Assembly: GCA_048938385.1 (NCBI GenBank)
Contig: JBHLMG010000011.1
Location: forward strand, 11,975 to 75,974
DNA length: 64,000 nucleotides
Source of the DNA: Promethearchaeota archaeon
GTDB lineage: Archaea; Asgardarchaeota; Hermodarchaeia; Hermodarchaeales; Hermodarchaeaceae
Reading direction: 5' to 3'
Below the pieces are notes generated by a model that made no database searches, had not been told where the DNA came from, and saw only the letters and a program-made list of their open reading frames with translations. Numbering within the stretch: the first letter of the stretch is position 1; each line of letters opens with the position of its first letter. The translations under genes and the position numbers were made by a program. Shown here in pieces: positions 40,644 to 58,367 of the stretch.

Positions 40644-41996
40644 CTAGTTGGAAGGGAGTGCTAACCGTGTCCAATCGATGAAATCTTCGCGTTTACGGTC
40701 GATTCGAGTACTGAGCCATGAGATGAGATCGTGTACGGTTTTGATGGCAGCAGGATGCATCATCATGAACACATCAACTCCCGCTAATAGGAACATCAAA
40801 GCCGTAGTACTCTCCCAGATAGGTCCACGCAATTCCCGGGGTCCAAGTTCAGGGTTTTTCATCCAAGCTTCACGTGCTGCCCAGGCGTTAGTTGTTCCAC
40901 TACTTAGAGGAAATTGAAGTTCGGAATCACCCAAAATTCCAGCAAGACGCATCCGTTCCATGATGGTGAAACTGTACTCAGCGCCATACCCGAGAGCCGC
41001 AGTCGTTGGATCGATGATAATTTGGTCTGATGTGATGTAATCGAGAAGACGTCTGTTAAGCTCTTTTTGCTGATTAATGTCGATGCTTGTCCACGACAAG
41101 ACCAGTTGGTCGTGTGTCTTCGCTGCTTTTGCGACAGGTTCCCACATATCTACTGTTGCGGACGCTAGAAGAACCCGTTCACCTTCTGCCACCTCCGCAG
41201 CGAGTGCAAGAAGTTCAGCATCCTTAACGGGATCACCTGAGCCGCCAACGATGATAGGGACTTTCACATTCTGGAGAACATTCTCAAACCCCTTCATTGC
41301 ATCCTTAGCACTCGTATCGTTCAAAAGCGGATCTGTACTAATCATGTGGTAGGTGATAAGGTCTGCACCAAACTTATCAATCACTAATCGAGCCCAATCA
41401 ACGGGATCATCCATTACCTCATCGTAATGTGTTCGTACGGCTTTAGCAAGTTTAATACGCATATCGAAGACATCTGCAGCGACCACGGGAAAGTGTTTCG
41501 CTGGAGTTTGAAAGAGGTTCCAAGCAGGTGCTTTATGACCTCCTACTGTAATGGTTTTACTCCGTGAACCTCCCTGTCCTTTCGTAGCTCCTAAGGTGAT
41601 TTCACGAATTTCTCCTGTATATTCAGCGAGTGGGGCTTTGAATCGGAGCTTTAGCAGTTGAGTTGGACGCACTGGTGAAGGTATACCCGGTGTGGGCATC
41701 GTAGCTTGTCCCGTTGGAAGCTGCATCTGTATCCCTAAAGCAGCAAGTATTTGCTGGGCAAACTGCTGAACTGCAAAAGCGTTTTGGGCAAGGAATTGTC
41801 GGGCTTGGTTAGACATGCCAGCTCCACCCCCCGGAGGAACGGTAACCTCGAGCTCATCGACATCAATTGTCATTTTCTCGAGTTCAAGTTCTTCGAACTT
41901 CCCAAATAGCGCCTCAAGTGGACCAAGAATACCTAATTCGGGATCGTCTGTCGAGAATGTGAGTTCGGTTTTTTCTTTTTTCTTATCCGGTGGCAT
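40644..41996 (-). CDS. cdhD: ACDS complex delta subunit (corrinoid Fe-S protein small subunit)
   Basis: GGSGDPVKD, IDINQQKELN, DPTTAALGYG, MERMRLA and AWAAREAW motifs. Confidence 0.95.
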   Translation of the reverse strand: MPPDKKKEKTELTFSTDDPELGILGPLEALFGKFEELELEKMTIDVDELEVTVPPGGGAGMSNQARQFLAQNAFAVQQFAQQILAALGIQMQLPTGQATMPTPGIPSPVRPTQLLKLRFKAPLAEYTGEIREITLGATKGQGGSRSKTITVGGHKAPAWNLFQTPAKHFPVVAADVFDMRIKLAKAVRTHYDEVMDDPVDWARLVIDKFGADLITYHMISTDPLLNDTSAKDAMKGFENVLQNVKVPIIVGGSGDPVKDAELLALAAEVAEGERVLLASATVDMWEPVAKAAKTHDQLVLSWTSIDINQQKELNRRLLDYITSDQIIIDPTTAALGYGAEYSFTIMERMRLAGILGDSELQFPLSSGTTNAWAAREAWMKNPELGPRELRGPIWESTTALMFLLAGVDVFMMMHPAAIKTVHDLISWLSTRIDRKREDFIDWTRLALPSN

Positions 41997-42011
41997 TCTT
42001 GATAGCCTCGT

Positions 42012-43442
42012 CTATTTCTTGCCCTTTTCGTCAAGGCGTTTGATGATCACTTTTTCAGCATAGATTTTTGCATTCTTGAAGATGATCTGGAACCCGGGAC
42101 TACCGCTAGCTCCTGGTACTGTCGTCATTAACTGACCAGGCATCATGAAAGGTTGTACTTGTTGAGCTGCAGGAGAGATTTCTTCACGACGCTCCTCTTC
42201 TTCTAATCGTGCTGCTGCACCTGTCTCCACCCAACGTTCAACGATTGGGTGGTTGTGGTCTTTAAGGTAGGTTTTCAGTTCATCTATGCTAGTCACATCG
42301 TTTTCTGTTGGAATGATGTCTCGAATATTCGTTGGCATGAAATCATAGACTCGATCCTTGATAGCCTTTGGTAGCCAGACAATTCGTTCCCAGCTCCCAT
42401 CCACTGTCAAAAACTTTGGTGACCGTAGGTACTCAATGGATAACCCATGGAAGCCAGGAATCTGACGACCACCTGCTGTTGAGTCTGCCATTGTGGAAAA
42501 TGGCAACCCGTTTACAGCTGGTCCCTTATAGTCACGATGCACAATTCCCAGTCCATCAACCTCTGGAATAATGAAGGCGATGGCTTCAAAACAGCCACAA
42601 CTCGTGTGTGGGTTCTCGAAGGCACTGTACAGGGCTACATCGGTCACCGCGCCGAGGGTCTTCTCCTTATAGGACTGATTTACTCCTGTATAGATGCCTT
42701 TCACAGCGTCAACAGTATCGCCTTTTTCGATAGCAAAGAGCGGTCCTTTCGGATCTATCCGGGCTGCTGCACGGCCATCAAACCAACTGATTGCTCCGCA
42801 GTTTGCATAGCGTTGTGGTGTAATGACACACATGTGTGTTGGGCTAAAGGATTGACAGAGGGTACAGCCATAGAACACATCGACTTCATCGTCTTTAAGA
42901 CCGCGGGTGCGTTCATCACGCGCGTTGTAGGTGACCATGGCTGTATCGTAGATTTCGTCCATTTTAGTGGGATCAGTGTAGAAGGTGACTTGGATTTTTT
43001 CGATGATGGGTAGTTCGGATTTGTAGAGGCGTTGGTATACTTGACCCAGAACCTTAAAGGTGTTAAAGCCTTTCTGGAAGGATTTCTTACCAATGCGAAT
43101 CCAGATATCATAGCGCTGATTAAGGTGCATAGTGCCTTCCACAAAATTGGTATATTCGTGGATGTGCCGTTCGATGACCCCTTCGAGGTCTTCTTCGACT
43201 TCCTTGCCTGCCACTTCGATGAGGATACCGAATGGATGGCTGGCGCCTTCTTCGAGGTCTTTTAGATCGGGTCCAATGATGTTGATTTTGCCGTCTTCGA
43301 TTTCGTTCATTTTTCGGGTTAGGACCAACTCGAATTTCTTTTGAATTTTAGGTCCACCGAGTTCGACTTGCATATCGGCTTTGCGAATGCGTTCACCTTC
43401 GAATACCACTCCAACCTGGATAGGTAAGTCTTCAAATGACAT
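42012..43442 (-). CDS. cdhC: Acetyl-CoA synthase (ACDS beta subunit)
   Basis: FEGERIRK, CTLCQSF, CGAISW and HTSCGCFE (A-cluster ligands). Confidence 0.97.
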   Translation of the reverse strand: MSFEDLPIQVGVVFEGERIRKADMQVELGGPKIQKKFELVLTRKMNEIEDGKINIIGPDLKDLEEGASHPFGILIEVAGKEVEEDLEGVIERHIHEYTNFVEGTMHLNQRYDIWIRIGKKSFQKGFNTFKVLGQVYQRLYKSELPIIEKIQVTFYTDPTKMDEIYDTAMVTYNARDERTRGLKDDEVDVFYGCTLCQSFSPTHMCVITPQRYANCGAISWFDGRAAARIDPKGPLFAIEKGDTVDAVKGIYTGVNQSYKEKTLGAVTDVALYSAFENPHTSCGCFEAIAFIIPEVDGLGIVHRDYKGPAVNGLPFSTMADSTAGGRQIPGFHGLSIEYLRSPKFLTVDGSWERIVWLPKAIKDRVYDFMPTNIRDIIPTENDVTSIDELKTYLKDHNHPIVERWVETGAAARLEEEERREEISPAAQQVQPFMMPGQLMTTVPGASGSPGFQIIFKNAKIYAEKVIIKRLDEKGKK

Positions 43443-43988
43443 TTACTTGGTACCTCCTGCTGCAGTGAGGATTTCTTTCAGTGCTTCATTCCATTTTTGT
43501 TTCTTGAGGTTTGGAAAACTCCATGATGCGTGAGGTTGATAATAGCGGCCAAGGGTGATGGTCTTGATGTGGGGAGAGAAGTTAATGAGCGCAGATAGCA
43601 TGAGCCATTCCATATAGTAGGGGAACCCGAAGGTCATTACAAGGTCGTGGGGTCCTTTCTTTGGAGCGACCATCCATTCATGGTCTTGGAGTCGTCCAGT
43701 AATTTCCATAGCACCATAGGCATAGGCGTTGTTGAAGCCTTTCTCTTTGAAGGCTTTAATAGTGTTACCAGTGGCGACGATGGGGATGTTTGTGGCAGTC
43801 GAGAGTTCGATGAAGTACTCAATCATGGATTTCTTTTGCGTCTTCTCTGTAAGGGCTTGAGCACCTACAATAATGAGTGGGTGTTTCGCCTTCTTCATGA
43901 GGGCTCCCACCACGGCGGTTTTTTTGAGTTCTTGAGCCTTAGTGGGTCCACAGACCTCTGCGGTTTGCCAAGGTTCAGCTCGCATCAT
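43443..43988 (-). CDS. cdhB: ACDS epsilon subunit
   Basis: PWQTA, AKHPLIIVG, G.PYY and YQPHASWSFPN motifs. Confidence 0.93.
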   Translation of the reverse strand: MMRAEPWQTAEVCGPTKAQELKKTAVVGALMKKAKHPLIIVGAQALTEKTQKKSMIEYFIELSTATNIPIVATGNTIKAFKEKGFNNAYAYGAMEITGRLQDHEWMVAPKKGPHDLVMTFGFPYYMEWLMLSALINFSPHIKTITLGRYYQPHASWSFPNLKKQKWNEALKEILTAAGGTK

Positions 43989-46346
43989 TTATTTGCCACC
44001 TCCGTTACCACCATAGACGAGTCGTCTAATGAGAGTTGGGTCGGGGATAGGTTTCTCCTTCCATTTATTCTCTTTCATCTGGGCTTTGATTTTGTCCTTA
44101 AGAGTGATGGGGATATCCGTTTCGCGTCGAATAAATCGGTGGATGTCATCAGGGAAGTAGCCGTAGTATTTTTCGTGTAAATCGATATAGTGGCTTAACT
44201 TGATGGCCCGACCCTTACTGGTGTCGTTGGGTCGGATGCAAAGTCTTGCGGTCAAAACCATGAGCTCTTCAAAGTTTTCCACAGCGTAGAAGAGATGTTC
44301 TGGTCCTGGGGCAATTTGGACACGGTTTCCTGTTCGAGCATCCCATACCATCCAGTCTTCATCTCTATCTGCTCGACCAAGGAGCATCCGTCGATACTTA
44401 GTACCATGGGGACCGACGATGACAGGAACTCCGAGTCGCCAGAACCCAGCTGCAATAGATGCCGCCTTCTGAGACATAGCCCCCCAAGAAATTCCTACTG
44501 CACCGACCCGGTTGTGTATATAGTCAGCAATTTCTTCATAGTTCCCTCGGAGGTTGCGTTTCGCAAAGATGCTGGCAATCTTGATTGCCGCGCCTGCTAT
44601 GTGGGAGTTAGCAACACAAGAACCCACATTGAGTACGCTTCCGGCATCGAAAGTGCCAGGTCGGCGTTCGTAGATCGATTTCCCTTCCTCATCTTTGATG
44701 GCACCGACTGTCATGGCGGCACATCCCGAGAAGACTACGATAAACCGGCGCTTCGCGAATTCCTCAGCATGGTCATGGATTGCACGCCCTCCATCAGGGT
44801 AGTTCGCGCAGCCAACATGAGCGATCACCCCTGGAATTTCTCCGAAAACAATGGGCTGTCCAACAGTTCGAATTTCGGTGTCTTTGATCGCACCGCGTCC
44901 GGATCGAACCATGAAGGCTTCTTGTTTCCATTGTCCTTCTGCGGCTTTGACCATCCAGCTGTGAAGGTCATATTCGTTGGGGCATGCGGATTCACACCGA
45001 GCACAACCGATGCACTCGTTGTATACATCAGCAAGCGGGCCAAGGTTGCCCTCCGCAGCGGCCAGTACCGCATCCATTACGGGTTGATCATTCGGACAAG
45101 CACGAACGCATTCGGAACATTGTCGACAAGCCTGGGCAAGTTCCTTTATCTTTGCCGCACTAGGTAGGGATCCTTTCTTCTTCCGTTTTGGATACATCTT
45201 GATGGCTGTCTTGACTACAACTTCACCAATCTTCTCGTGATCCCGAATATAGACACCGGGCATTTTGCCAGAAACAAGATCCGCAACGATATCGTCAGGA
45301 TCATCTTCAGTACGATCTGGTAAACCCATCGTTGACTTATCACAGGTCGCAATGACTGGTGAGTTGACTTTCTTCGCGTGTTCGAGGATGTCGGTGCGAA
45401 TACACTGCTCATCTACAACAATGACATCAGCAAATCCGCTACGAACGAATCGTAATTGCCAGGAAATTGGACCAACAATTTTCGCTTTCTTCTCATAACG
45501 TGTTATGTCCCAAGCAGTACAACAAATTCCAGCGATATCGATGTTTTCAAAAACGCCTGTTTCAGTAGCATAGTCCATGATGTAAGTCGCCGGTACTACA
45601 TTGTGCCCAATAGCCAGAATCATCGCTTTCTTGGGATCCATACTTGCTATCCCTGCTTCAACTAGGGGGGCCTCAGGATCAGACTGCGGAAATCCAAGGG
45701 TGGAAATCTGAGCGAGGTCAGCGATTTCCATACCCACTTGGTCAATCATACCTACATGGAAGGCCTTCGATTCAAAATCAATCCAACTTCCCTCTTGACC
45801 AGTGTGAACCGCTGAGAGTGTATGCGTTAACTGGGTTTCGCAGTAATCTAAAATTGCTGCCGCATCTTCTAGGGTGCGTGGGCGAATCCCCGTCACCAGA
45901 CGGGAAACAGGGGCTTCGATTTCCACACCCTCTCCTTGGGTTAATTCAAAGCGTGGACCAAATTCGTGAATCATGTGGTCGACCATATGTCGTGAGTGCG
46001 CAAGGTGCGCCGCACACCCGATGTTCGCAGCAGCCAACACAATCCGCGCTGACTGACCTTCGATATCGAGTCCACAAGCCCCCCGCTTACCTCCCGTCAA
46101 GTCACATTTCCCGAATGTGCATAAGCAGCATAGTTGGCATGCTGGCATGTATGCAGGTCGATAGCGTGTCAGGAGCTTATGGTCCCAACTCCTAAGTGTA
46201 GTGACATCGGGCATGGGGGTTGGACCCATGGGTTCGTCCCAATCATCATCAATGACTCGACCAATAGTAACTTCGACATTACGGAAGGACCCGAATCCGG
46301 TGTCAAGTTTATCGGCTTTGAGTCTTGCTCGTTTTTGTTCTGTCAA
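43989..46346 (-). CDS. cdhA: CO dehydrogenase (ACDS alpha subunit)
   Basis: PMGPTP, CQLCCLCTFGKC, GHN, GICCTA, DEQC, two ferredoxin motifs, VGCAN and GSCVAN; TTG start. Confidence 0.97.
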   Translation of the reverse strand: MTEQKRARLKADKLDTGFGSFRNVEVTIGRVIDDDWDEPMGPTPMPDVTTLRSWDHKLLTRYRPAYMPACQLCCLCTFGKCDLTGGKRGACGLDIEGQSARIVLAAANIGCAAHLAHSRHMVDHMIHEFGPRFELTQGEGVEIEAPVSRLVTGIRPRTLEDAAAILDYCETQLTHTLSAVHTGQEGSWIDFESKAFHVGMIDQVGMEIADLAQISTLGFPQSDPEAPLVEAGIASMDPKKAMILAIGHNVVPATYIMDYATETGVFENIDIAGICCTAWDITRYEKKAKIVGPISWQLRFVRSGFADVIVVDEQCIRTDILEHAKKVNSPVIATCDKSTMGLPDRTEDDPDDIVADLVSGKMPGVYIRDHEKIGEVVVKTAIKMYPKRKKKGSLPSAAKIKELAQACRQCSECVRACPNDQPVMDAVLAAAEGNLGPLADVYNECIGCARCESACPNEYDLHSWMVKAAEGQWKQEAFMVRSGRGAIKDTEIRTVGQPIVFGEIPGVIAHVGCANYPDGGRAIHDHAEEFAKRRFIVVFSGCAAMTVGAIKDEEGKSIYERRPGTFDAGSVLNVGSCVANSHIAGAAIKIASIFAKRNLRGNYEEIADYIHNRVGAVGISWGAMSQKAASIAAGFWRLGVPVIVGPHGTKYRRMLLGRADRDEDWMVWDARTGNRVQIAPGPEHLFYAVENFEELMVLTARLCIRPNDTSKGRAIKLSHYIDLHEKYYGYFPDDIHRFIRRETDIPITLKDKIKAQMKENKWKEKPIPDPTLIRRLVYGGNGGGK

Positions 46347-46512
46347 TGCAAAATCAACCTTTTTTTGCGCGCATTAATAGTATGAAGTAGTGTTCAAATA
46401 GTACCGGTATATCTTTTAAGATTTGATGCTTCTGCAAGGTTTCTAATTGGATGTATATCTCCTAGATGAAAAATGGAGACCATGTATTACTTAATAAGAG
46501 ACGATTACAAGG

Positions 46513-47718
46513 TCAATCGATGGGAATTTTCTTACCATTGATGTAGGCTTCTGTCACTTCGCTATAAAATTCGAAGGGATGCCCTGACCACACAATGATA
46601 TCAGCATCTTTACCAGGTTCAAAGCTTCCAATTCGTTCATGCAGGTTGAGGATCTCCGCTGGGTTAATAGTGACGCATCTCAAGGCATCGTCGCCGCTCA
46701 TGCCCTCCTTAATGCAATGCATTGCAAGTAGGGGAAAATAAAGCATGGGTGTAATTGAATCGGTTTGCAGGGCAACTTTGACACCCGCATCATTAAGGGT
46801 AACCGCGGTTTTGAATCCTTTTTCTCTGACTTCGGGTTTGCTTGCCCAAAGCATCGTTGGTCCAACAACCGCTGGATATTGTTTTTTGGCAAGAAATTTC
46901 GCAATCTTATGCCCTTCAGTACAGTGGATTAGAACCAAGTGAAGATTAAATTCCTCAGCGATTCGGATGATGGTGGCAATATCATCTGCACGGTGACAAT
47001 GGGCGTGAATCGGAATTTCCCGTTTAATGACCATCGCAATGGTTTCGAACCCCAAGTCTCGTTTAGGAGGCGTTGGAATAGCCTCACCTTTTGCTTTGGC
47101 TTCCTTCGCCTTTGCTCCAAAAGCCTTCCACTCATCCAGATAGTTTTGACCATCTGTGAAAGTCTTACGAAGCAGTGCTGCTATACCCATGCGGGTCATG
47201 GGCATTCTTTTGTTATCCTGTCCATGAACTCGTTTTGGATTCTCACCTAATGCAATCTTTAGTGCAGAAGGAGACATGACGATCATATCCTCGACGACGG
47301 TTTGGGGTATTGGTTTGAAAATAAAAGCTTCACCGGAAATCACATTACCTGATCCTGGACCTGTGTTCACAGTGGTTACCCCGCCCTTGATGATTTCTTT
47401 TAATGAAGGTTCGAATGGGTAGAAACCGTCCTTTCCTCGCATTTCGGGTGTGATAGGAGTAGTCATTTCGTTCCCATCCTGACCCATCGGTCCGATTGTG
47501 CCATCGAAGAGTCCATGGTGAGCATGGGCTTCCACGAATCCAGGTACAACAAATTGTCCTTCAACATCTGTGATTTTCGCATTACTGGGAATCGGAACTG
47601 ATGGGCCAACATCGACAATTTTTCCACGGTCAAAAAGCAGCGTACCGTTTTTAATAAGTCCCTGCACAGGACACAAAATCGTTGCATTTGTAAGGGCCCG
47701 CAAATTGGTCACCACCAT
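46513..47718 (-). CDS. Metal-dependent amidohydrolase
   Basis: PGFVEAHAH, LKIALGENP, HCHRADD, IHCTEG and GKDAD motifs. Confidence 0.9.
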   Translation of the reverse strand: MVVTNLRALTNATILCPVQGLIKNGTLLFDRGKIVDVGPSVPIPSNAKITDVEGQFVVPGFVEAHAHHGLFDGTIGPMGQDGNEMTTPITPEMRGKDGFYPFEPSLKEIIKGGVTTVNTGPGSGNVISGEAFIFKPIPQTVVEDMIVMSPSALKIALGENPKRVHGQDNKRMPMTRMGIAALLRKTFTDGQNYLDEWKAFGAKAKEAKAKGEAIPTPPKRDLGFETIAMVIKREIPIHAHCHRADDIATIIRIAEEFNLHLVLIHCTEGHKIAKFLAKKQYPAVVGPTMLWASKPEVREKGFKTAVTLNDAGVKVALQTDSITPMLYFPLLAMHCIKEGMSGDDALRCVTINPAEILNLHERIGSFEPGKDADIIVWSGHPFEFYSEVTEAYINGKKIPID

Positions 47719-47831
47719 ACCATTGCTTCAAGAATTACGAAAAGCTTTGGGTGACGCGTAAAACAGATTTTTTATCAAAGGTTAGACGAAGGTGTAACTA
47801 TTTCCCTCTGCTAATAACTAATGAAGCATCT

Positions 47832-48470
47832 TTAATGGCTCTGAGATCTGTTACTTTCCCGATTTGGTTCCGTTTCTGCTTTTCGGAACTTTGGAAATAG
47901 AGCGCCAGTCTGTTCTTTATATTCCCTGTAGGCATCACCAAATCGTCGGATGAGGTCCCGCTCTTCAACATATAGCATAGTGGGTGTATAGAAGAGGAGA
48001 AAGATAGTAGTCACTATGAGGAGAAAGAACGAGTTGACTAAGAGGGGTAAGGCAATAAACCAACTGATTTCCCCAAGAGTTTGAGGGTGTCGAATGTACT
48101 GATAGATTCCCCTGAACATCTTGGTGTTCGGGGACGGTGTAATAGATTCTGGTCCTGAGTCTTTGAGGCCCTTCAGCCAAATGGGAAAAGTGATGATGAA
48201 GATGATAACGGCCAGGATGCTGCCGATCCAGGGGTCTGAATGAATTGACCAAGCGAGTTCAGGGATCGGAAGCCAAATCCAGAGAAAAATGGTGATTAGA
48301 GCGACTACCATGAAGATTGTACCAATTGTGCGGAGGGTTTTACATTGTTTCCAGGCTTTATTACCAGCAGTTTCTGCTCGACGAGCTGGCTGTAAACTTG
48401 GAATGTAAAAGCCTGCAAAAAAAGCTAGACTGAAGAATAAGAGGAGAAGGTTAATCCAGGATACTAGCAC
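47832..48470 (-). CDS. Isoprenylcysteine carboxyl methyltransferase/PEMT-family membrane protein
   Basis: GIYQYIRHP and EERDL..RFG..Y..Y motifs. Confidence 0.88.
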   Translation of the reverse strand: MLVSWINLLLLFFSLAFFAGFYIPSLQPARRAETAGNKAWKQCKTLRTIGTIFMVVALITIFLWIWLPIPELAWSIHSDPWIGSILAVIIFIITFPIWLKGLKDSGPESITPSPNTKMFRGIYQYIRHPQTLGEISWFIALPLLVNSFFLLIVTTIFLLFYTPTMLYVEERDLIRRFGDAYREYKEQTGALFPKFRKAETEPNRESNRSQSH

Positions 48471-48518
48471 ATCGAACCCTTGAATCTCATATGTCCCGTT
48501 TTTTATTAGTCTGATTGT

Positions 48519-49328: not shown

Positions 49329-49392
49329 CTGGTGAGTGTAGGTACTAATATACGGGGCTTAAAGCCTTCGTATTTAGCCAGGAAGTCCCCTG

Positions 49393-50673
49393 TTAAAATT
49401 GTTGGATGAACTGCTCAAGAATGGATTCTTCGCTTTGAATATCGGGAGGCGGGCTAGTGAAGGGCTTGAGGGAGACAGGAGTCCCATCCATCCGATTGAC
49501 AGTTCCTCCTACTTCCACACCAGTAAGTGCAGTGGGAATAACGAGTTGGGCTTCGCGGGTTGTCAAGGTAGGATGAGTTGATAAAGCAACGATTGGAAGA
49601 TCACAAAGAGCCTTGGCAACGGGCCCTGGGAGGAGGCTTAAGGCATCCCATCCGACTATGAGGGCTGAGTCGAATTCTCTTTTGAGAAGCCCTTGAAGGG
49701 GAGAGACATGAGCTGCAGGTTTCGATGAAGTGAAATCTATGGCATAGGGGAGTTTAGTTGCCTGTAAACTTGATTTCACGGCTCCGATTGTATTGCAATA
49801 AGTGACCATGGGAAGTGTGACACATTTACGGCCATTATTATTCAGCAATGAAGAAACCTTGGCAAGAAGAGGTAGTGACTTGGAACTATGGGAAGCGTGA
49901 AGTAATCCGCTGCCGTAGAAGAGGGCTATGAAATCAGCTGATCCGAGTTGTTTGACAAAACTTAGAAACTCGATCGCTGGGACCCCCCCAACTTGGGCGG
50001 GTGGAGTTCGTGCGTTACCTTCCAGTTCTGGAATTAATGTCTGGAGAAATTCGATATCACCATCTCCTGGAGAGAGTATTAGTTGGTGATTAGCTAATCG
50101 CATGGATTCGGAATCCCGTATGTCGATAACTGACACAATTCGGCTCTCTCGTCCCTCTGGGATTTTTTCACCTTTCGGAAAGACTGTGTAGCGACTCGCA
50201 TGTCGATGATGGCTTTCTGCAGGGTTAACTCCCCAATAGATAATGTGATCTGCCTGGTTACGCACTTCATCCAATAGTTGCTGGTGCTGGTCACCCCCTT
50301 GAAGGTTTGATTCTAACAACTGTCCATATTCAAAACTCGCCGTACTATCAAAAACGCCCTTCAATTTCTTTGTGAGAGTCAGTCCTAACCGTATTGCTTC
50401 AGTTGGACTATTTGACCAACCAATTAGGAGGGGTTTAGAACTTTCTTTCAGGAGTTTCACTGCCAAATCTATTGTTTTTTGCAATGCATTGCGCTTCTGC
50501 CTTCCTGTGCTAGTTTTGATTAAGGAAGTTTTAAGACGAGATCGACTAGAAAAAGAGCTGCAGTATTCGTGTCCTAGCCTGCAAAGTCCCAAGGATTGTA
50601 ATCCTGATTTCGTTAAAGTGACTGCAACATCATCGCAGACTACTGAGCAACCACAACACACTGTATCCTGCAT
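49393..50673 (-). CDS. fwdB: Formylmethanofuran dehydrogenase subunit B homolog with degenerate active site
   Basis: CCGCSVVCDD..LCRLG, VRNQAD..IYWG.NP..SH.RH.SRY and GVE..GT..RMDG are present. The metal-ligand and catalytic residues are replaced. Confidence 0.85.
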   Translation of the reverse strand: MQDTVCCGCSVVCDDVAVTLTKSGLQSLGLCRLGHEYCSSFSSRSRLKTSLIKTSTGRQKRNALQKTIDLAVKLLKESSKPLLIGWSNSPTEAIRLGLTLTKKLKGVFDSTASFEYGQLLESNLQGGDQHQQLLDEVRNQADHIIYWGVNPAESHHRHASRYTVFPKGEKIPEGRESRIVSVIDIRDSESMRLANHQLILSPGDGDIEFLQTLIPELEGNARTPPAQVGGVPAIEFLSFVKQLGSADFIALFYGSGLLHASHSSKSLPLLAKVSSLLNNNGRKCVTLPMVTYCNTIGAVKSSLQATKLPYAIDFTSSKPAAHVSPLQGLLKREFDSALIVGWDALSLLPGPVAKALCDLPIVALSTHPTLTTREAQLVIPTALTGVEVGGTVNRMDGTPVSLKPFTSPPPDIQSEESILEQFIQQF

Positions 50674-50700
50674 GCTTCATCCCGGTTAGGCTAAGGTTGG

Positions 50701-51168
50701 TTACCAAATTTCAATGGCTTTCACATAGCAGCCCTGCTCGCAAACTCGGCAATTCATCCTCTCAGGGGGAAATCGTCTGCACTTGTCTAGATTGATAATA
50801 TGAGCTATCCCATTTTCTACTTGAAACACTGTAGATCCTGACCTCGCTGCATGACCAGTTGCGGTATTCGGTTCTACTGTTGCATCCACAGGACAAACAA
50901 CAACACAATTGCCACATCCCGTGCATTTTGTGTCATCTAATGATAGGCCGGTTTCCTCAGCAGTTAGAAGGGGTGCAATGAGATCTGTAAGCTCTTTTAA
51001 TTGGTCTGCATATTGATTCTCTTCGTATAATGGTGTACACTCTTTGAGTTCAACTTCACGCAGAGCGAGCCGTGTTGCAAAGGCCATACAAATCATGCCA
51101 CACTTCTTACAATTCGTTTGAGGAAGAAGTTTGTAAACAAGCATGGGATTCAATTTTTGGCCCGCCAT
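50701..51168 (-). CDS. fwdG: FwdG-like Fe-S protein (LPxTNCxxCG Fe-S domain plus 2[4Fe-4S] ferredoxin)
   Basis: LPQTNCKKCGMICMAFA, CTGCGNCVVVCP and C..CRVCEQGC motifs; directly upstream of fwdB. Confidence 0.7.
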   Translation of the reverse strand: MAGQKLNPMLVYKLLPQTNCKKCGMICMAFATRLALREVELKECTPLYEENQYADQLKELTDLIAPLLTAEETGLSLDDTKCTGCGNCVVVCPVDATVEPNTATGHAARSGSTVFQVENGIAHIINLDKCRRFPPERMNCRVCEQGCYVKAIEIW

Positions 51169-51337
51169 ACTATCACATTTTAATTTCTGATATTTTGGTG
51201 CAGCTGCGCCTTTAGCTCTTCGGCAATAACGAAGTAGTGTTTATAATAGCATTTGCCTTCACAATTAAATGAAAAGATTGTAAGGTAAGAAGTGTTAAAG
51301 CACTCGTAAGGGTATCGAAATAAGGTAAAACCATGCG

Positions 51338-53797
51338 GTGACCATGGTGGCGAAACCAAAAAGGACCCCATCCCCCTCAAAAACTTCACAAAAACGCCAT
51401 AAATCGAAGACCAAGAAGCCCCCTCGTATTGCACTTTTTCTTTGCCATTGTGGAAGTAATATCAAGAGTATCATCAACATTGACCAATTGAAACATTATT
51501 ACGAAAAACAACCAAACCTCATCGTCATTGATGACGCCCACTTTTGCGTCGAGCAAGGTCTCAACTTGATTCGTGAAACGATCCAAAAAGAAAAAATTGA
51601 CCGAGTTGTCGTCGCCGCATGCTCACCTCACCTCCATGGCGAGCTTATGAGTCAAACAGTCGAAGAAGCTGGACTAAACCGAGGCCATCTCGCAATTGCG
51701 AATATACGAGAACAGTGTAGCTGGGTTCATTGGGACAGCCCTGAAGCAGCTACCGCCAAGGCTCGGTTAATGATCGATGTTGCTATAAAGCGCGCTGAAC
51801 ACAGCCTTCCTGCCCATTCGATTGAAATTCCGGTTACAAAACGGGTACTAGTGATTGGCGGTGGTATTGCAGGAATCACAGCAGCACTCCAATTGGCTAA
51901 CTCAGGACACGAAATCATTTTAGTCGAACGCAGTGGGTTCCTAGGCGGTCATATGGCTAAATGGGATAAGCTATTTCCCAGCCTTGATTGTAGCCTATGT
52001 ATCCTTGGACCCAAAATGACCGAAGTTGGTACACACCCTAAGATCCAGGTTCTGACACTTAGCGAAGTAACTGAGGTTGAAGGTACTCCTGGTGCTTATC
52101 AGGTCAAAGTCCATCAAAAGCCCCGATATGTAGACCTTGAGACTTGTAATGGATGCAATAAATGCCTAGAAATCTGTCCAATTGAAGAACCCAACGAATA
52201 CAATTACGGGCTGGGTGCCCAAAAAGCCATAATACGACCTTATCCGAGTACAGTACCCCTAGCTCCTTATATTGACATGGAGGCCTGCGTGGGATGTCAA
52301 TCCTGTGTTGGCGTTTGTGAGAAGGAGTCTATCCGGTTCGAAGAGACTGATCAACACCACACCTTCAAAGTCGGTGCAATCGTCGTTGCTACAGGCTTTG
52401 CTCCCTTCGATCCTGATATCCTCCGTGAATACGGGTATGAACGCTATCCGGATGTCATCACGGCTCCAGAACTCGAACGGCTCCTGAACCCGAGTGGACC
52501 CTCACAGGGAGTAGTCATTCGTCCATCTTCAGGGGCTCTCCCTCAACGCGTTGCGTTCGTTCAATGCGTGGGAAGCCGAGATATTCGAATTGGGCGACCA
52601 TATTGTAGTCGCATCTGCTGCACCTACGCACTCAAGGAAGCCGTGCAAATTCGACTAGCCCATCCTGACATAGAAACATATATTTTCTACACCGATATGC
52701 GAACATTTGGAAAAGGGTTTGAGGAATTATACGAGCGGGCAGGAAGCGAACATGGCGTGAACTTCATTCGGGGACGAGTTGCTGAAATTGAAGAAGACCC
52801 GAAAACTAAGCAATTACTTGTCCGAGCTGAGGATACAGAAATTTGTGAACCTATCGAACTACCAGTTGATCTAGTCGTGCTCAGCGTAGGTGTGGATCCC
52901 TCTATTACCAATCCCAAGCTTGCCACAACATTGAATGTTCCATTAGATGAAAATAATTTCTTTTTAGAAAAGCACCCCAAACTTAATCCAACAGGAACTT
53001 ACTCAGCAGGTATTTTTCTTGCTGGAACCTCACAAGGACCAAAAGATATAGCCGATACTGTGAGCCATGCAGGCCTTGCCGCTTCTCAGGTTTCCACGCT
53101 CCTTCACAAGCGAAAGCTCTCATTGGAAGTTCAGGCTCCGGTCCTTGCAAACCCTAACCTATGTGAAAGCTGTCGACTTTGTGAAAGAACTTGTGATGCT
53201 AATGCGATATCTTTTGAGAATTCAAAGGTTCCTGTGATTGATGAACTAGCCTGTACAGGGTGTGGGGCCTGTGTTGCCGCCTGTCCCACTGCTGCCTTAG
53301 ATCTACCAGGTTACACTCGACAACAGCTCATAGCTGCCGTTGATGCAGCCTGTGAAGATAATCCCCTCCAGCCAATCATAATCGGCTTCTTTTGTAATTG
53401 GTGTGCGGATACCGCTGCTGACACCGCGGGGATTAAGCGTATCCGTTATCCACCACAACTCATCCCTATTCGTGTGCCCTGTAGTAGCCGCCTTGATCCT
53501 CTATTGATTCTAGAAGCTTTTAGCCAAGGCGCTGATGGTGTCGCGATTATTGGATGCCATGAAACCGACTGTTTCTATCGAACAGGATTGAAAAAGGCTC
53601 GAACTCGAGTGATGAATCTACAACCACTTTTAGAAGAAATGGGTATCGACCCTGATCGTGTGTTCTTTGGAATGACAGCGGCATCAGAAGGGGGACGGTT
53701 GGCTGAAATGATCACAGATTTTGTAAATGTTATATCTGAGCGCGGTCCTTTAGGCTCGGAAATAACAATCGCTTCAAAGCCACATAAGGGTAACTAG
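51338..53797 (+). CDS. hdrA: Heterodisulfide reductase subunit A fused to MvhD
   Basis: CHCGSNI, AACSP, IREQCSWVH, GGGIAG, CVGSRD..YCSRICC and ferredoxin motifs. C-terminal MvhD motifs FCNWC, RVPCS and GC...DC. Confidence 0.95.
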   Translation: MTMVAKPKRTPSPSKTSQKRHKSKTKKPPRIALFLCHCGSNIKSIINIDQLKHYYEKQPNLIVIDDAHFCVEQGLNLIRETIQKEKIDRVVVAACSPHLHGELMSQTVEEAGLNRGHLAIANIREQCSWVHWDSPEAATAKARLMIDVAIKRAEHSLPAHSIEIPVTKRVLVIGGGIAGITAALQLANSGHEIILVERSGFLGGHMAKWDKLFPSLDCSLCILGPKMTEVGTHPKIQVLTLSEVTEVEGTPGAYQVKVHQKPRYVDLETCNGCNKCLEICPIEEPNEYNYGLGAQKAIIRPYPSTVPLAPYIDMEACVGCQSCVGVCEKESIRFEETDQHHTFKVGAIVVATGFAPFDPDILREYGYERYPDVITAPELERLLNPSGPSQGVVIRPSSGALPQRVAFVQCVGSRDIRIGRPYCSRICCTYALKEAVQIRLAHPDIETYIFYTDMRTFGKGFEELYERAGSEHGVNFIRGRVAEIEEDPKTKQLLVRAEDTEICEPIELPVDLVVLSVGVDPSITNPKLATTLNVPLDENNFFLEKHPKLNPTGTYSAGIFLAGTSQGPKDIADTVSHAGLAASQVSTLLHKRKLSLEVQAPVLANPNLCESCRLCERTCDANAISFENSKVPVIDELACTGCGACVAACPTAALDLPGYTRQQLIAAVDAACEDNPLQPIIIGFFCNWCADTAADTAGIKRIRYPPQLIPIRVPCSSRLDPLLILEAFSQGADGVAIIGCHETDCFYRTGLKKARTRVMNLQPLLEEMGIDPDRVFFGMTAASEGGRLAEMITDFVNVISERGPLGSEITIASKPHKGN

Positions 53798-53827
53798 TAT
53801 ACAATCAGCAAAGTTTTAAACAAATGC

Positions 53828-55552
53828 TTGTGTGGTCAATCTTGTTTCACAGATATTGATGAGTTGTACTGCTTGCGAACGGGCACTGTGAATCTAGTTA
53901 TTGTACTCGCTATTTCGAGTCTTATCCTTAGCGTTATTGCTTTGCCTTTAATTTCACAAACATCAACAATACTCCCTTCTCGAAATTTAGTAACTTCAGA
54001 CCATATCTGGAGTTTAAATTTTGGAGTCAACAACTTTGATGATGCTGCGAATTCTATAATCCACTGTAATGATGGAGGATATCTTCTCGCTGGATCAACT
54101 TGGATTCGTGAAGATCGAGATATCCTCTTACTGCGAATTGATGAGAGTGGTGGAATTCTCTGGAGTAACACCTATGGTGGGGCTGGAGAACAGATAGCTT
54201 CGGAGGTTATTGAATGTGAAACAGGTGGATTTGTTGTTATTGGAACAGACCTCTTCGATGATTCGACATCGGATGTCCTCCTTATTCGAACTAGCGCCAC
54301 TGGAGAAATGATCTGGTCACAAAGATTTGGGGGCAAGATGAACGACCGAGGGTCTTCACTGTTAGAATGTCAAAGCGGGGGTTTTGCTCTAGCTGGAAAT
54401 ACTAACAGCTATGGATTGAACGGGACAAATTATTGGTTGGTTCGAACCGATGCTGATGGGATGGCTTTGTGGAATCGTACTTATGGGGGAAACGATGATG
54501 ATATTAGTCATTCCCTAATCGAAATATCACCTGAAGAGGGGTTTGTCATTGTTGGTTCAACAAAAAGTTTCGGTGCAGGGAACAGTGACGCATGGTTAGT
54601 ACGCACTGATGCCTTAGGGGATGTTTTATGGCAACAAACGATAGGGGGATATAGGCATGATTCATGTCAGAATATCATCCGGAACCAGGATGGAGATTTC
54701 ACCATTATTGGAATTACAGATAACACTCCAAATCTTAACCCCAGCACCTTCGTGATACACTTTTTTGCCAACGGAACCCGAAAATGGGAAACAACATTTT
54801 TTGGAAGTCTTGAAAACAGGGGCTACTCAATCATCGAATGTCGTGATGGAAGCTTTGCAATTACAGGTATAACCCTTAACTGGGATTACAGGGGTGGCAG
54901 CACAAACCTTTGGCTTACGCGATTAGATGCAACTGGCATGCATCAATGGAGCAAGGACTATGGAGGCTATTACAATGATGCAGGGCAAGCACTCGTTCAA
55001 GCGGAAAATGGTGATTTTGTACTTGCAGGTACAACCCGAAGTTATGCCACCGGCGGGTCTGATGCATGGATTTTACGGGTTCCAGACTCAGCACCTCCAA
55101 CGAACTTGGAAGGTGTGTATATCCCGCCAAACTTTCTCCTTATCGCGTTAGGAGCGCTGTTAGGTATCAGCATTCTAATTAGTTCTCTTCTCTTGTATCG
55201 GCAAAGCCGCGAAGAACTTGTCCCTAGATGGGATCCTATTCCTCGCGAAGTGCTATTACAGACCTGCTTTTCACCACGATACATTGAAGATCTTCTACCT
55301 GTCCTAACGGGTCGAATCGCCTGTTCCATCTGTGGAAATCCTAATGATCGTGGAAATTCGACCTGTAACCAATGTGGGGTTGAGTTACATCGATGCTTTA
55401 TTTGCAATGAAACTCTTGGTCCGGAGGATTGCGTGATTTTTTGCCCCAGTTGTTCATCTCTCGCACATCATGAACATACACGACAAGGTTTTGGTGAAGG
55501 GACACCTTGTCCAAAATGTGGACTTTGTTTTCCCACTTCAAAAACATCTTAG
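53828..55552 (+). CDS. 7-bladed beta-propeller + TM + zinc ribbon + RING-like domain protein
   Basis: Seven W-x3-(Y/F)GG...G-F-x2-G repeats, a TM helix, CSIC..CNQC, and CFIC..CPSC..HHEH..CPKC. Confidence 0.8.
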   Translation: MCGQSCFTDIDELYCLRTGTVNLVIVLAISSLILSVIALPLISQTSTILPSRNLVTSDHIWSLNFGVNNFDDAANSIIHCNDGGYLLAGSTWIREDRDILLLRIDESGGILWSNTYGGAGEQIASEVIECETGGFVVIGTDLFDDSTSDVLLIRTSATGEMIWSQRFGGKMNDRGSSLLECQSGGFALAGNTNSYGLNGTNYWLVRTDADGMALWNRTYGGNDDDISHSLIEISPEEGFVIVGSTKSFGAGNSDAWLVRTDALGDVLWQQTIGGYRHDSCQNIIRNQDGDFTIIGITDNTPNLNPSTFVIHFFANGTRKWETTFFGSLENRGYSIIECRDGSFAITGITLNWDYRGGSTNLWLTRLDATGMHQWSKDYGGYYNDAGQALVQAENGDFVLAGTTRSYATGGSDAWILRVPDSAPPTNLEGVYIPPNFLLIALGALLGISILISSLLLYRQSREELVPRWDPIPREVLLQTCFSPRYIEDLLPVLTGRIACSICGNPNDRGNSTCNQCGVELHRCFICNETLGPEDCVIFCPSCSSLAHHEHTRQGFGEGTPCPKCGLCFPTSKTS

Positions 55553-55658
55553 CTTGAAAGACCAGCTTGCCTTATAATCAGAACCTAGGACGGTAACAAG
55601 CATTAAAGGTAAAGATTCGTAAGGCTAGTCAAAGAGTAACGAATTACAGGGATTCTCT

Positions 55659-57152
55659 ATGACTAAAGTACAGCGCGACAAAATCATTGTCGGCGAACGC
55701 CCGAAAGTAACTAGTGAAGTCATCGACGACACAAACATTCAGTACAATTGGATTACCTCACTCCTTAACAAGAACTTAAAGTACGATTTGGCACGTTGCA
55801 TCGGTTGTAGTCTTTGCCTACCATGTCCCTGGGACGCCATTACTTTAGGACCCGTTCAAGAAGTAGCCTCTGGTCGAATGGAGAGCGCGCCACTCATTCT
55901 TATTGATGAAGATAAATGCACCTTCTGTGGACTGTGTGATTCCGCCTGTATCTTCAATGCTATTGAAGCGGAATTCGATGATATACCTGCAAATGTTCAA
56001 TACGCTAGATTAAAGGGTAAGCACCACCTCGATGAGGAGAAGTGTGCCCCCTGTGTACTTTGTGCTAAAATCTGTCCCCGCGATGCAATAACTGTTGAAC
56101 TCAAGGTCACTCCAAAAATAGAGTTAGTTCACTACAAAGACCCTCAGGTTGCACAGAATGTTGCTGATGGAAATCCCGATGCTAAAGGTTCTATCGCAAT
56201 TGATGAAGACAAATGCACCTGGTGCGGCTTATGCGAGTTATTATGTCCTGAATGCATTACGATTTATTGGATTGAAGAGAAACCTAAACCCCCTGATTTT
56301 CATCCAGCAGTTAGTATCCGTGTAGATACTACTCATTGTGATTACTGTGGGCTATGTGAAGTCATCTGCCCTTCAGATGCTGTGAATGTGACCTGCAAGA
56401 GTAGTCCTGCACGCGAGATTAACGAACCCCAAATAGAGGGATCTATGAAAATTGATGATAAACTCTGCGTTGACTGTACTCTTTGCGCACAAAAATGTCC
56501 TTACGAAGCCTTAGAAGTAACCCTACCTCTTACTGGAATAGTAGAAATTCAAAACCTCGAAAAATGCGATCCCACCGGTTGTATTAATTGTTTTAAAATC
56601 TGCCCAACTCAAGCTATCTATCCTTCTGGTGATAAAGATAAGATTGCGATCAACGAGGATATCTGCGTGTTTTGTGGCGCCTGTGAAAATGCTTGCCCTG
56701 AACAAGTGCTTAAGGTGAAACGCGATAGTTATTCCCTTTCCCATTTAGAAAAAGCCCGAGACTGGGAACGCGCCCGGGCCAGACGGTTCTATGATCACTT
56801 GATTGGGCGAGAAGCACCGCGAAGTGATATCTATGAAAGAGAAATTACGGTGGCTACTTCGCAAGATTCAACGGGTGGACTATCCAAGCCTGAACATTGG
56901 AACGAAGAACCGATGATCCGCCAAGTAGCACAAGACCGGATTCGGAAACTTCAAAGTATTATCCAGAAGAATTGGCGCCTCCGACTGCTCTTTGAACGAG
57001 GGCGTGTAGATCCCTTGTGTGCTGCAGTTCGAAACGAGGCTAGCGAGGTTTTGAAGGTTACTGCTAGGAATGTGAAGGGGAACTCACCTTCGGGTTCGAA
57101 CAAAGAGAGCAAACCGAGAAAATCCTCTACCAAACACATCAAAAATACTTAG
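55659..57152 (+). CDS. fwdF: Polyferredoxin, FwdF-like (8 [4Fe-4S] motifs)
   Basis: Eight CxxCxxCxxxC(P)-type motifs; the N-terminal CPWDAITLGP pattern is FwdF-like. Confidence 0.75.
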   Translation: MTKVQRDKIIVGERPKVTSEVIDDTNIQYNWITSLLNKNLKYDLARCIGCSLCLPCPWDAITLGPVQEVASGRMESAPLILIDEDKCTFCGLCDSACIFNAIEAEFDDIPANVQYARLKGKHHLDEEKCAPCVLCAKICPRDAITVELKVTPKIELVHYKDPQVAQNVADGNPDAKGSIAIDEDKCTWCGLCELLCPECITIYWIEEKPKPPDFHPAVSIRVDTTHCDYCGLCEVICPSDAVNVTCKSSPAREINEPQIEGSMKIDDKLCVDCTLCAQKCPYEALEVTLPLTGIVEIQNLEKCDPTGCINCFKICPTQAIYPSGDKDKIAINEDICVFCGACENACPEQVLKVKRDSYSLSHLEKARDWERARARRFYDHLIGREAPRSDIYEREITVATSQDSTGGLSKPEHWNEEPMIRQVAQDRIRKLQSIIQKNWRLRLLFERGRVDPLCAAVRNEASEVLKVTARNVKGNSPSGSNKESKPRKSSTKHIKNT

Positions 57153-57526
57153 GGAAGCTCATGAATTGAAGATATGGGTTCTTTACTGGGTTTAATCATA
57201 ACAATTGTCCCTTGACTCGTAGCAATAGATCCGATGACAGCAAAAGCCCAGGGGCTTGGGTGCATAACGGCTACGCCCTCCGGTTGACTCTCCTTTATTC
57301 GAGCCACAACGACAATTTGCCCCGTTGTCGATTTTACCTCAATATTGCCACCTTCTTTGATGTTCAATCGTTTGGCATCCCCTGGTGCAATTATAATTCG
57401 GGCTGCAACCTCCTGGTATTCTGTTGATAATGTGCCCTGTGCGGCTTGCGCAGAATCAACATCTAGCGCACGGGCAAGAACTAATCGGACTTCGAGATGC
57501 GGGTAAAGGAAATCACGCAGAGCCAT
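57149..57526 (-). CDS. fwdD: FwdD homolog (molybdopterin dinucleotide-binding fold), degenerate
   Basis: EY....A.I.I.P.D..RL.IKEG..IEVKS..GQIVV and PEG....PWA motifs. Confidence 0.78.
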   Translation of the reverse strand: MALRDFLYPHLEVRLVLARALDVDSAQAAQGTLSTEYQEVAARIIIAPGDAKRLNIKEGGNIEVKSTTGQIVVVARIKESQPEGVAVMHPSPWAFAVIGSIATSQGTIVMIKPSKEPISSIHELP

Positions 57527-58346: not shown

Positions 58347-58367
58347 CGAATCAACTGAGGCGTTGGA

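Follow-up and report, generated by a model that had tools for sequence, protein, structure and literature searches.

A conserved Fwd-Hdr-like module with a predicted non-CO2-reducing FwdB paralogue lies beside the CODH/ACS genes of Hermodarchaeia

A 64,000-nucleotide stretch from the genome of an uncultured archaeon of the Hermodarchaeia (Asgard; 2.48 Mb, 90% complete), which we call the window (positions 11,975 to 75,974 of contig JBHLMG010000011.1, assembly GCA_048938385.1; contig C48 in our set), encodes a module of five conserved proteins beside CODH/ACS (carbon monoxide dehydrogenase together with acetyl-CoA synthase): an FwdG fusion, an FwdB paralogue (FwdB*), an HdrA-MvhD fusion, an FwdF-like polyferredoxin and an FwdD paralogue (FwdD*). 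As judged by homology, FwdB* and FwdD* are extra, non-CO2-reducing paralogues set in an Hdr-polyferredoxin context, and their substitutions are fixed under purifying selection and are not decay. We propose, as a reading that stands about midway between belief and doubt, that FwdB*D* is a non-catalytic core which holds an iron-sulfur (Fe-S) wire to a bifurcating HdrA, and that the module exchanges low-potential electrons with CODH/ACS. The module is laid out in the window as follows.

49393-50673, minus strand: FwdB*, 426 amino acids, an FwdB paralogue lacking the Arg and the Cys (TIGR03129, 5T5I_B)
50701-51168, minus strand: FwdG fusion, 155 amino acids, 12 Cys, three predicted [4Fe-4S] clusters (PF04060 plus FwdG)
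51169-51337, no strand: divergent intergenic region, 169 bp, the presumed shared promoter region between the starts of the FwdG-fusion and hdrA-mvhD genes
51338-53797, plus strand: HdrA-MvhD fusion, 819 amino acids, HdrA2 type (NF040770, 8RVU_a, 5ODC_D)
55659-57152, plus strand: FwdF-like polyferredoxin, 497 amino acids, eight [4Fe-4S] motifs (5T5I_F)
57149-57526, minus strand: FwdD*, 125 amino acids, Molydop_binding barrel (PF01568, 8RJA_D)

FwdB* had no match in the Pfam search and scored 299.4 bits against TIGR03129, under the cut-off of 327.8 bits, compared with 504.7 bits for the other FwdB copy of the genome. Over its entire length it can be aligned with FwdB/FmdB chains of known structure (E = 6e-55 with 5T5I_B), and within this alignment the ligand-site segment TASVCHG of 5T5I_B reads TASFEYG, with Glu115-Tyr116 in place of Cys118-His119, whereas PMRGHYN reads PMVTYCN, with Val, Thr and Tyr in place of Arg288, Gly289 and His290. 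The roles of the W/Mo ligand Cys118 and of His119, Arg288 and His290 have been described previously (PMC11656701). FwdB* thus has neither the Cys/Sec-His ligand motif (SFEYGQ for SVCHGP) nor the Arg288/His290 motif (MVTY for MRGH), and where canonical FwdB has a near-invariant Lys behind the fourth cluster Cys, FwdB* has Tyr and Thorarchaeia have His. The N-terminal [4Fe-4S] motif is kept, with C6, C9, C13 and C31 all invariant. In FwdD* the Molydop_binding barrel is recognizable (48.8 bits against PF01568, cut-off 26.8 bits; E = 3e-10 with 8RJA_D), although the protein reaches only 39 bits against NF042908, for which the cut-off is 175 bits. Compared with about 40 canonical FwdD proteins, its L(I/T)(T/S)GRTxxQG motif has become LVLARALDVD and IPMGPWAN has become HPSPWAF. 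The losses of pterin-site residues claimed for both proteins in an initial annotation of this DNA are therefore real, and family and structure searches agreed with the genes that it had named and placed.

These replacements show that FwdB*, so far as homology can tell, has lost CO2/formate chemistry. The pterin cofactor was likely lost from FwdB*D* too, since the ligand and catalytic residues and the cluster-adjacent Lys are gone, the FwdD motifs have changed in concert and the sister protein of Thorarchaeia is more degenerate still. Counter-indications to pterin loss are the retained D subunit, the full-length fold, the conservation of 50 of the 78 canonical near-invariant positions (including WGxNP, DxR, GxG and GTxxRMDG) and the invariance of the Glu-Tyr pair. 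An AlphaFold2 model of FwdB* (predicted local distance difference test score 84.5) matches the FwdB/FmdB chains 5T5I_B, 8RJA_B and 7BKB_H with template modelling (TM) scores of 0.89-0.91, compared with 0.64 for the pterin-less FhcB (6S6Y_F). The term 'pterin-free' of the initial annotation has in its favour that metal ligand, catalytic residues and Lys have all disappeared, but goes further than the fold, the D subunit and the kept positions allow, and is itself an inference. We also considered WGxNP...HRH together with GTxxRMDG as proof of pterin binding, and rejected this because Cys-less bacterial homologues (e.g. an Isosphaeraceae protein) retain both. In the 90%-complete genome no protein reached the cut-off of the archaeal MoaA model (best 86 versus 325 bits), though canonical FwdB is encoded. 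The only MobA-like gene seen is a weak one near canonical fwdB on contig C51.

The features kept by FwdB* also bear on a rival explanation, which we consider unlikely, that FwdB*D* is a cofactor-bearing redox enzyme for an unknown HdrA-driven reaction, with a bis-pyranopterin whose W/Mo sits on Glu115, or is unligated as in arsenite oxidase, or with a metal-free one. Such an enzyme would agree with the strict invariance of Glu-Tyr among variable neighbouring positions; yet Thorarchaeia, in the same gene context, have Gly-Leu/Ala there and a degenerate C-terminal motif, so that a function shared by the two cannot need the Glu. Retention of the D subunit, unlike in pterin-less Fhc, speaks for it as well, but the pterin-facing TGRT and GPWAN motifs of that very subunit have changed in concert. 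Similarly, the full-length FwdB fold (TM 0.9 versus 0.64 to FhcB) and the 50 kept positions have to be set against the replacement of the Cys/Sec ligand, His119, Arg288, His290 and the cluster-adjacent Lys, and against the presence of WGxxP...HPRH and GTxxRxDG in Cys-less bacterial homologues. Other members of the Arg-less clade to which FwdB* belongs (described below) have Cys-His or Cys-Gln, some of them beside an FwdA-like gene, which also favours an enzyme; we know of no Glu-ligated enzyme of the FwdB family.

Glu-Tyr occupies the ligand site of FwdB* in all of about 60 protein clusters (55-76% identity), and an EY-type FwdB* was present in 18/18 Hermodarchaeia species genomes searched. 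Ratios of non-synonymous to synonymous substitution rates (dN/dS), computed on pairs of relatives with unsaturated dS, were 0.10-0.17 for FwdB* and 0.11-0.17 for FwdD*, compared with 0.04-0.07 for the FwdG fusion and 0.05-0.09 for HdrA-MvhD (0.04-0.09 for these two and the polyferredoxin together). The fixation of Glu-Tyr in 18 genomes and these low ratios argue against decay, and the substitutions are not unique to the present genome, which by the terms of the initial annotation would have counted against its proposal. It is hardly credible, then, that FwdB* and FwdD* are functionless decaying relics: they do evolve faster than the rest of the module (family-wide identity 56-64% versus 70-85% for the others), as such relics might, but their reading frames are intact in all genomes, their motifs and Fe-S cysteines are invariant and the genes have been retained across two Asgard classes and beyond.

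All Fe-S cysteines are present in FwdB*, the FwdG fusion, the polyferredoxin and HdrA, as the initial annotation had reported. Its 'fwdG', however, is not a plain FwdG gene. Residues 8-71 of the product match PF04060 (E = 3e-9), the [4Fe-4S] N-domain of the corrinoid Fe-S protein (CFeSP) large subunit/CdhE and of RnfB, and this N-domain matches positions 2-67 of NF003195 (CdhE; E = 8e-16) and the PDB chains 9FZY_F and 2H9A_A; the FwdG part, complete with the insert typical of that subunit, spans residues 74-155 (9SFI_U, 5T5I_G). The fusion proteins of Hermodarchaeia and Thorarchaeia are 62% identical, with 12/12 Cys invariant. In HdrA-MvhD, residues 21-673 match 8RVU_a (E = 2e-188) and residues 678-805 match the MvhD chain 5ODC_D (E = 3e-35), and the protein keeps the GGGxAG motif for flavin adenine dinucleotide (FAD), four CxxCxxCxxxC motifs and the DCSxC Cys pair, a pair highlighted in PMC13580544. 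With 632 bits to HdrA of M. marburgensis and 925 bits against the HdrA2 model NF040770 (positions 1-776 matched; cut-off 1100 bits), the fusion is not divergent in sequence, contrary to what had been claimed.

Residues 18-371 of the polyferredoxin match positions 3-342 of 5T5I_F (E = 3e-44), with 219 bits against NF042909, below the cut-off of 375 bits, and its eight [4Fe-4S] motifs, six canonical and two variant, are arranged in four ferredoxin modules. Beyond these it carries a charged C-terminal extension (residues about 372-450, window 56770-57010; ARDWERAR...NWRLRLLFERGR) that is conserved between Hermodarchaeia and Thorarchaeia and absent from the solved Fwd subunits. The same is true of an N-terminal extension of FwdD*, MAL(R/G)DFL(Y/F)P (window 57500-57526), which is common to both classes and likewise missing from the solved subunits; the two extensions are candidate new contact elements. 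A complex prediction with FwdB*, the FwdG fusion and residues 1-400 of the polyferredoxin gave a polyferredoxin score of 0.70, and of 0.66 with an unrelated protein replacing FwdB*, which speaks neither for nor against binding and at most hints that the score arises from the FwdG chain.

The module is embedded in the following genes.

40644-41996, minus strand: cdhD, CODH/ACS delta (Pfam CdhD)
42012-43442, minus strand: cdhC, CODH/ACS beta (Pfam CdhC/ACS_CODH_B_C)
43443-43988, minus strand: cdhB, CODH/ACS epsilon (Pfam CO_dh)
43989-46346, minus strand: cdhA, CODH/ACS alpha (Pfam Prismane)
46513-47718, minus strand: 401-amino-acid amidohydrolase, between cooC and cdhA, in genus g1 only
47832-48470, minus strand: PEMT/ICMT-like membrane methyltransferase, between cooC and cdhA, in genus g1 only
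48519-49328, minus strand: CooC-type Ni-insertion ATPase (PF01656/ParA/NifH-type P-loop)
53828-55552, plus strand: membrane-anchored beta-propeller/zinc-ribbon protein, 574 amino acids, no family match
57663-59042, plus strand: rhomboid and cofC genes, flanking FwdD*

Transcription of the minus strand runs in the order fwdG fusion, fwdB*, cooC, methyltransferase, amidohydrolase, cdhA, cdhB, cdhC and cdhD, and the FwdD* gene is convergent with the polyferredoxin gene, with an overlap of 4 nt. The window holds cdhABCD only, whereas Thorarchaeota loci have all five cdh genes together; cdhE is unlinked, on contig C2 (G000:C2:177791-179170, 549 bits). The inventory in the initial annotation was correct as far as it went, but passed over this absence of cdhE and the three intervening genes for the amidohydrolase, the methyltransferase and the 574-amino-acid protein.

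The same gene order was found in every Hermodarchaeia locus long enough to show it, the entire arrangement being conserved in genus g1, including the rhomboid-cofC-MFS flank, and genus g2 being without the three inserted genes. About 45 Thorarchaeota loci read fwdD / pfd < hdrA-mvhD / fwdG > fwdB-like > cooC > cdhABCDE (pfd denoting the polyferredoxin gene), and cooC lies immediately downstream of fwdB* or its counterpart in every Hermodarchaeia and Thorarchaeia locus reaching that far. The Thorarchaeia FwdB-like protein is 35-39% identical to FwdB*, with Gly-Leu/Ala at the ligand site and a degenerate C-terminal motif. On one complete Thorarchaeota chromosome (L169, CP070658.1) the module is rearranged: an 18-kb stretch shows hdrA-mvhD, the FwdG fusion and an FwdB-like gene, but no adjacent genes for the polyferredoxin, FwdD, CooC or Cdh. 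Outside these classes, a Bathyarchaeia locus reads fwdG > fwdB-like (Tyr-Tyr at the ligand site) > cdhABC and a Thermoproteota locus cdhA / fwdD, pfd < hdrA-mvhD / fwdG > fwdB-like, whereas a Thermoprotei contig has fwdG, fwdB-like, hdrA-mvhD, pfd, hdrC and hdrB in one co-directional cluster, which argues that the module proteins act together. The synteny whose conservation the initial annotation had made a condition thus recurs in Hermodarchaeia, in Thorarchaeia (mostly joined to cooC-cdh) and in some Bathyarchaeia and Thermoproteota. In a Methanosarcinaceae genome pfd < hdrA-mvhD stands divergent to genes for a thioredoxin, an FTR-beta-like protein, the PF04060-FwdG fusion, an FwdB-like protein of 419 amino acids with no Pfam match and an FwdD-like protein, and in Baldrarchaeia hdrBC, fwdD, an FwdA-like gene and pfd < hdrA-mvhD accompany fwdG > fwdB-like.

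The 80 loci that we fetched with an FwdB profile divide along the same line. Every FwdB-like gene beside hdrA-mvhD/pfd lacks the Arg; canonical-clade FwdB proteins keep CH(G/A/S)P in 69/69 cases and are mostly encoded beside fwdA/fwdC, with the Arg of their MRGH motif invariant and the His near-invariant. In trees that are midpoint-rooted only, IQ-TREE gave a support of 100 to the canonical clade, 99 to Hermodarchaeia plus Thorarchaeia and 99 to their sister relationship with Bathyarchaeia, and FastTree, with 96 representatives, gave a 1.00-supported split in which 59/59 proteins on the FwdB* side are without the Arg and bacterial Cys-less, Fhc-like forms nest inside the canonical side. The Arg-less clade contains FwdB*, its Thorarchaeia and Bathyarchaeia counterparts, proteins of Hodarchaeota, Baldrarchaeia and several Thermoproteota, and the Methanosarcinaceae protein (SFCQG/MVGQY); some other members keep Cys-His or Cys-Gln, and the Cys was lost several times in this clade, from which the Arg is absent throughout. 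In each member inspected the PF04060-FwdG fusion precedes the FwdB-like gene, mostly with hdrA-mvhD and polyferredoxin genes alongside. This full context was seen in the window, in L207, L209, L210 and L211 (in the last without an FwdD-like gene) and in the Thorarchaeota loci; the short contig L212 shows only the FwdG fusion beside the Arg-less FwdB-like gene, plus an FwdA homologue. Given the pan-archaeal spread of the clade, mostly with the same neighbours, and the Methanosarcinaceae layout, the module is an old archaeal unit and not an Asgard invention, and the distinct Asgard complex of the initial annotation has to be given up. The distant FwdA homologues within Arg-less modules (L209:2185-3735 in Baldrarchaeia and L212:2338-3738), whose full-length identity to FwdA is 24-26% (E = 1e-27 to 1e-37), suggest that the module may originally have been a second, complete Fwd.

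In two loci, L082 and L088, a catalytically intact FwdB (CHGP and MRGH kept) likewise comes after the PF04060-FwdG fusion, which therefore predates the loss of catalysis; in L082 the fusion directly follows cdhABC-cooC-cdhDE. We found no description in the literature of the role of the PF04060 cluster domain in genuine Fwd. These observations bear on a further explanation, that the module is a maturation or reductive-activation device, and not the bulk electron partner of CODH/ACS, which together with CooC would provide electrons of very low potential for assembling or reactivating the Ni clusters, or for the Co(I) corrinoid. The N-terminal cluster of CFeSP serves corrinoid reductive activation, and the FwdG N-domain is of the same type as the N-terminus of CdhE/CFeSP; moreover, fwdG > fwdB-like > cooC lies directly upstream of cdhA in Thorarchaeia and Hermodarchaeia. 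We nevertheless doubt this explanation, because the same fusion occurs before intact FwdB elsewhere and in modules with neither cdh nor cooC nearby, because a bifurcating HdrA and an eight-cluster polyferredoxin would be heavy equipment for occasional repair, and because CODH/ACS-bearing archaea mostly appear to do without the module.

On the window contig we found no fwdA, fwdC, ftr, hdrB, NiFe hydrogenase or further molybdopterin-family gene; all of these were found on other contigs. A canonical fwdB (505 bits) is on contig C51, together with fwdA, fwdC and ftr, whose absence from the window the initial annotation had remarked on, and the FwdB copy of the window is therefore dispensable for CO2 reduction. 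There are three full-length hdrB copies on other contigs, near another hdrA and/or an NiFe hydrogenase gene, and the genome has several NiFe hydrogenases. Fdh was not found in the genome, in which canonical FwdB alone matches the Molybdopterin Pfam model. The alternative offered in the initial annotation, that the module is an intermediate on the way to an Fhc-like formyl-methanofuran hydrolase, is rejected as very improbable. In its favour, FwdB* lacks the metal ligand just as FhcB does, and the 401-amino-acid amidohydrolase lies in the gene string. However, the module contains no homologue of FwdA, FwdC or Ftr, canonical Fwd and Ftr are already encoded in full elsewhere in the genome, and the amidohydrolase does not resemble FwdA and occurs neither in genus g2 nor in Thorarchaeia. 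Furthermore, FwdD* is kept, whereas Fhc has no D subunit (PMC11656701), the TM score to FhcB 6S6Y_F is 0.64, and the bacterial Cys-less forms branch separately, across the 1.00-supported split from FwdB*. We had tried the amidohydrolase as a substitute for FwdA and rejected it, as its similarity to FwdA (E = 0.055) covers 61 residues and it is absent outside genus g1; its top structural match is the uncharacterized 3OOQ_A (E = 5e-94), and it is strongly conserved (dN/dS 0.03-0.04).

We therefore return to the reading proposed at the outset, of a non-catalytic FwdB*D* core in an electron-transfer module. The five conserved proteins would form one soluble Fe-S/flavin complex, paralogous to the branch of the methanogen Hdr-Fwd/Fmd supercomplex that carries low-potential electrons, and most likely the module only moves low-potential electrons. 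In this complex FwdB*D* would be the structural core, holding FwdG and FwdF and supplying one [4Fe-4S] cluster, and the FAD of HdrA would be the sole catalytic centre, bifurcating or confurcating. By homology with the solved supercomplexes, in which FmdF wires HdrA to the CO2-reducing site (PMC13580544), electrons would pass between this FAD and FwdB through FwdF and FwdG, and the wire could exchange them at the flavin of HdrA, at the polyferredoxin and at the cluster domain that FwdG has gained at its N-terminus. CODH/ACS is suggested as the partner process by the position of fwdG-fwdB* at the head of the cooC-cdh string in Thorarchaeia, Hermodarchaeia and Bathyarchaeia, and by the ferredoxin-fed HdrA2 of Methanosarcina, where HdrA2-MvhD accepts electrons from ferredoxin that is reduced by CODH/ACS during growth on acetate (PMC5296606). 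The module of these two Asgard classes, Hermodarchaeia and Thorarchaeia, would feed bifurcated low-potential electrons to the reduction of CO2 to CO, or take up CO-derived electrons when the pathway runs oxidatively. The parts of this scheme that we infer are the union of the five proteins in one complex, the way in which electrons flow, the connection with CODH/ACS, whether direct or through ferredoxin, and the second (high-potential) partner.

Several observations weigh against the scheme. In genus g2 the module and cdhA sit on separate contigs, and the modules of Methanosarcinaceae and Baldrarchaeia adjoin thioredoxin/FTR-like or hdrBC genes and not cdh, so that the CODH link may be lineage-specific or only regulatory. 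Bifurcation requires a high-potential branch, yet the genome contains no orthologue of module-type HdrBC, all of its copies being 22-29% identical to module hdrBC. A pure relay would hardly be expected to end in a [4Fe-4S] cluster that leads nowhere, and the strictly invariant Glu-Tyr and the retained D subunit suggest that the old active-site pocket still has some task. A bolder version, in which the module docks on CODH/ACS to give an HdrA-Fwd*-CODH/ACS supercomplex and bifurcation drives CO2-to-CO reduction directly, without free ferredoxin, is in our estimate improbable. If it were true, the FwdB*D* pocket (Glu-Tyr and the FwdD* extension) would be a new docking or electron-exit site, or else a pterin/metal site with an unprecedented carboxylate ligand.

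The remaining neighbours are less closely tied to the module. The 574-amino-acid protein, inserted between the hdrA-mvhD and polyferredoxin genes, has a single membrane pass, beta-propeller-like repeats and C-terminal zinc ribbons. It is not part of the redox module: it occurs only in Hermodarchaeia genus g1, sometimes doubled, evolves fast (27-46% identity, dN/dS 0.33), has paralogues on contigs C31, C21 and C17, and is missing from genus g2 and the Thorarchaeota loci, where hdrA-mvhD directly abuts the polyferredoxin gene. Genes for PEMT/ICMT-like methyltransferases number 1-3 in tandem between cooC and cdhA, again in genus g1 only. The rhomboid-cofC pair stands next to FwdD* in all Hermodarchaeia loci, but not in Thorarchaeia, and may be incidental; cofC belongs to F420 biosynthesis, and HdrA2 of Methanosarcina uses F420H2 (PMC5296606). 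An open reading frame of 84 amino acids (51180-51434, minus strand) with no family match lies antisense to the start of HdrA-MvhD, overlapping its conserved, Lys-rich N-terminus, and is in all likelihood no gene.

Among known systems, the hdrA(-mvhD)-pfd pair of Methanosarcinales (M. acetivorans MA2868/MA2867; HdrA2, Yan et al. 2017) is close at hand, the HdrA-MvhD of the window matching the HdrA2 model over its full length. The Methanosarcinaceae genome described above shares the layout of the window and has an FwdB-like protein of the same Arg-less clade, but this protein keeps the Cys (SFCQG) and adjoins thioredoxin and FTR-beta-like genes, whereas the window adjoins cooC-cdh; the HdrB2C2 partners known in Methanosarcina were identified neither in the Hermodarchaeia genome nor at the locus. 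In M. acetivorans that layout has its counterparts in the hdrA-pfd and fwdG2B2D2 clusters, and fwdB2 is constitutively expressed (Rohlin & Gunsalus 2010, PMC2838876). These clusters have been named only, and the biochemistry of HdrA2B2C2 was published without these partners; in no paper that we found are fwdG2B2D2 and hdrA2-pfd regarded as a single unit, or the Fwd-like proteins put to the test. With the methanogen Hdr-Fmd/Fwd supercomplexes (7BKB, 9SW6 and 9SFI; Fwd, 5T5I) the module shares full-length homology of HdrA, MvhD, FwdF, FwdG, FwdB and FwdD. It differs from them in lacking FwdA, FwdC, HdrBC, Mvh and Fdh, in the replaced ligand and catalytic residues of FwdB, in the extra N-terminal cluster domain of FwdG and C-terminal tail of FwdF, and in the fusion of MvhD to HdrA.

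The 'Fwd-Hdr' cluster of Ca. Methanonezhaarchaeum fastidiosum (Kohtz et al. 2025, PMC12700198) likewise associates a second FwdBD, FwdF and FwdG with Hdr, apart from the Wood-Ljungdahl FwdABCD; it has HdrABC, and formate oxidation by its FwdBD has been proposed. The Thermoproteota loci that we read and that are comparable to this cluster fall in the Arg-less clade, and the relatives read keep Cys-His. The window, in contrast, has Glu-Tyr for Cys-His, which makes formate/CO2 chemistry very unlikely in FwdB*, and CODH/ACS as a neighbour. Fhc of methylotrophs (6S6Y) also has an FwdB homologue without the metal ligand, but lacks a D subunit, has a remodelled, shorter B subunit and works with FwdA/FwdC/Ftr homologues (PMC11656701). 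Its phylogenetic origin differs from that of FwdB* and the structural match is weaker. In NuoG, the 75-kDa subunit of complex I, a molybdopterin-family fold has been kept without the cofactor for Fe-S electron transfer; NuoG chains are among the fold matches of FwdB*, and NuoG also came up in NCBIfam (E = 3e-6), but as a distant relative in a different complex it serves as an analogy only.

Our literature searches yielded no account of this module in Asgard archaea, and the Hermodarchaeota genome paper is silent on Fwd. Eukaryotes have no closer known relatives than the Asgard archaea, and every metabolic model of these archaea leaves open how their Wood-Ljungdahl pathway is supplied with electrons of very low potential. 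To our knowledge, HdrA is the only known archaeal family of bifurcating flavoproteins, and a conserved, selected module, which in two Asgard classes sits within or next to the cdh operon, ties it to CODH/ACS by genomic context. As this type of module is also found in Methanosarcinaceae, and the genetically tractable M. acetivorans has the fwdG2B2D2 and hdrA2-pfd genes, its function can be tested now. If the proposed role is true, a CO2-reducing molybdo/tungsto-enzyme would have been turned into a non-catalytic electron-transfer subunit, as happened with NuoG in complex I.

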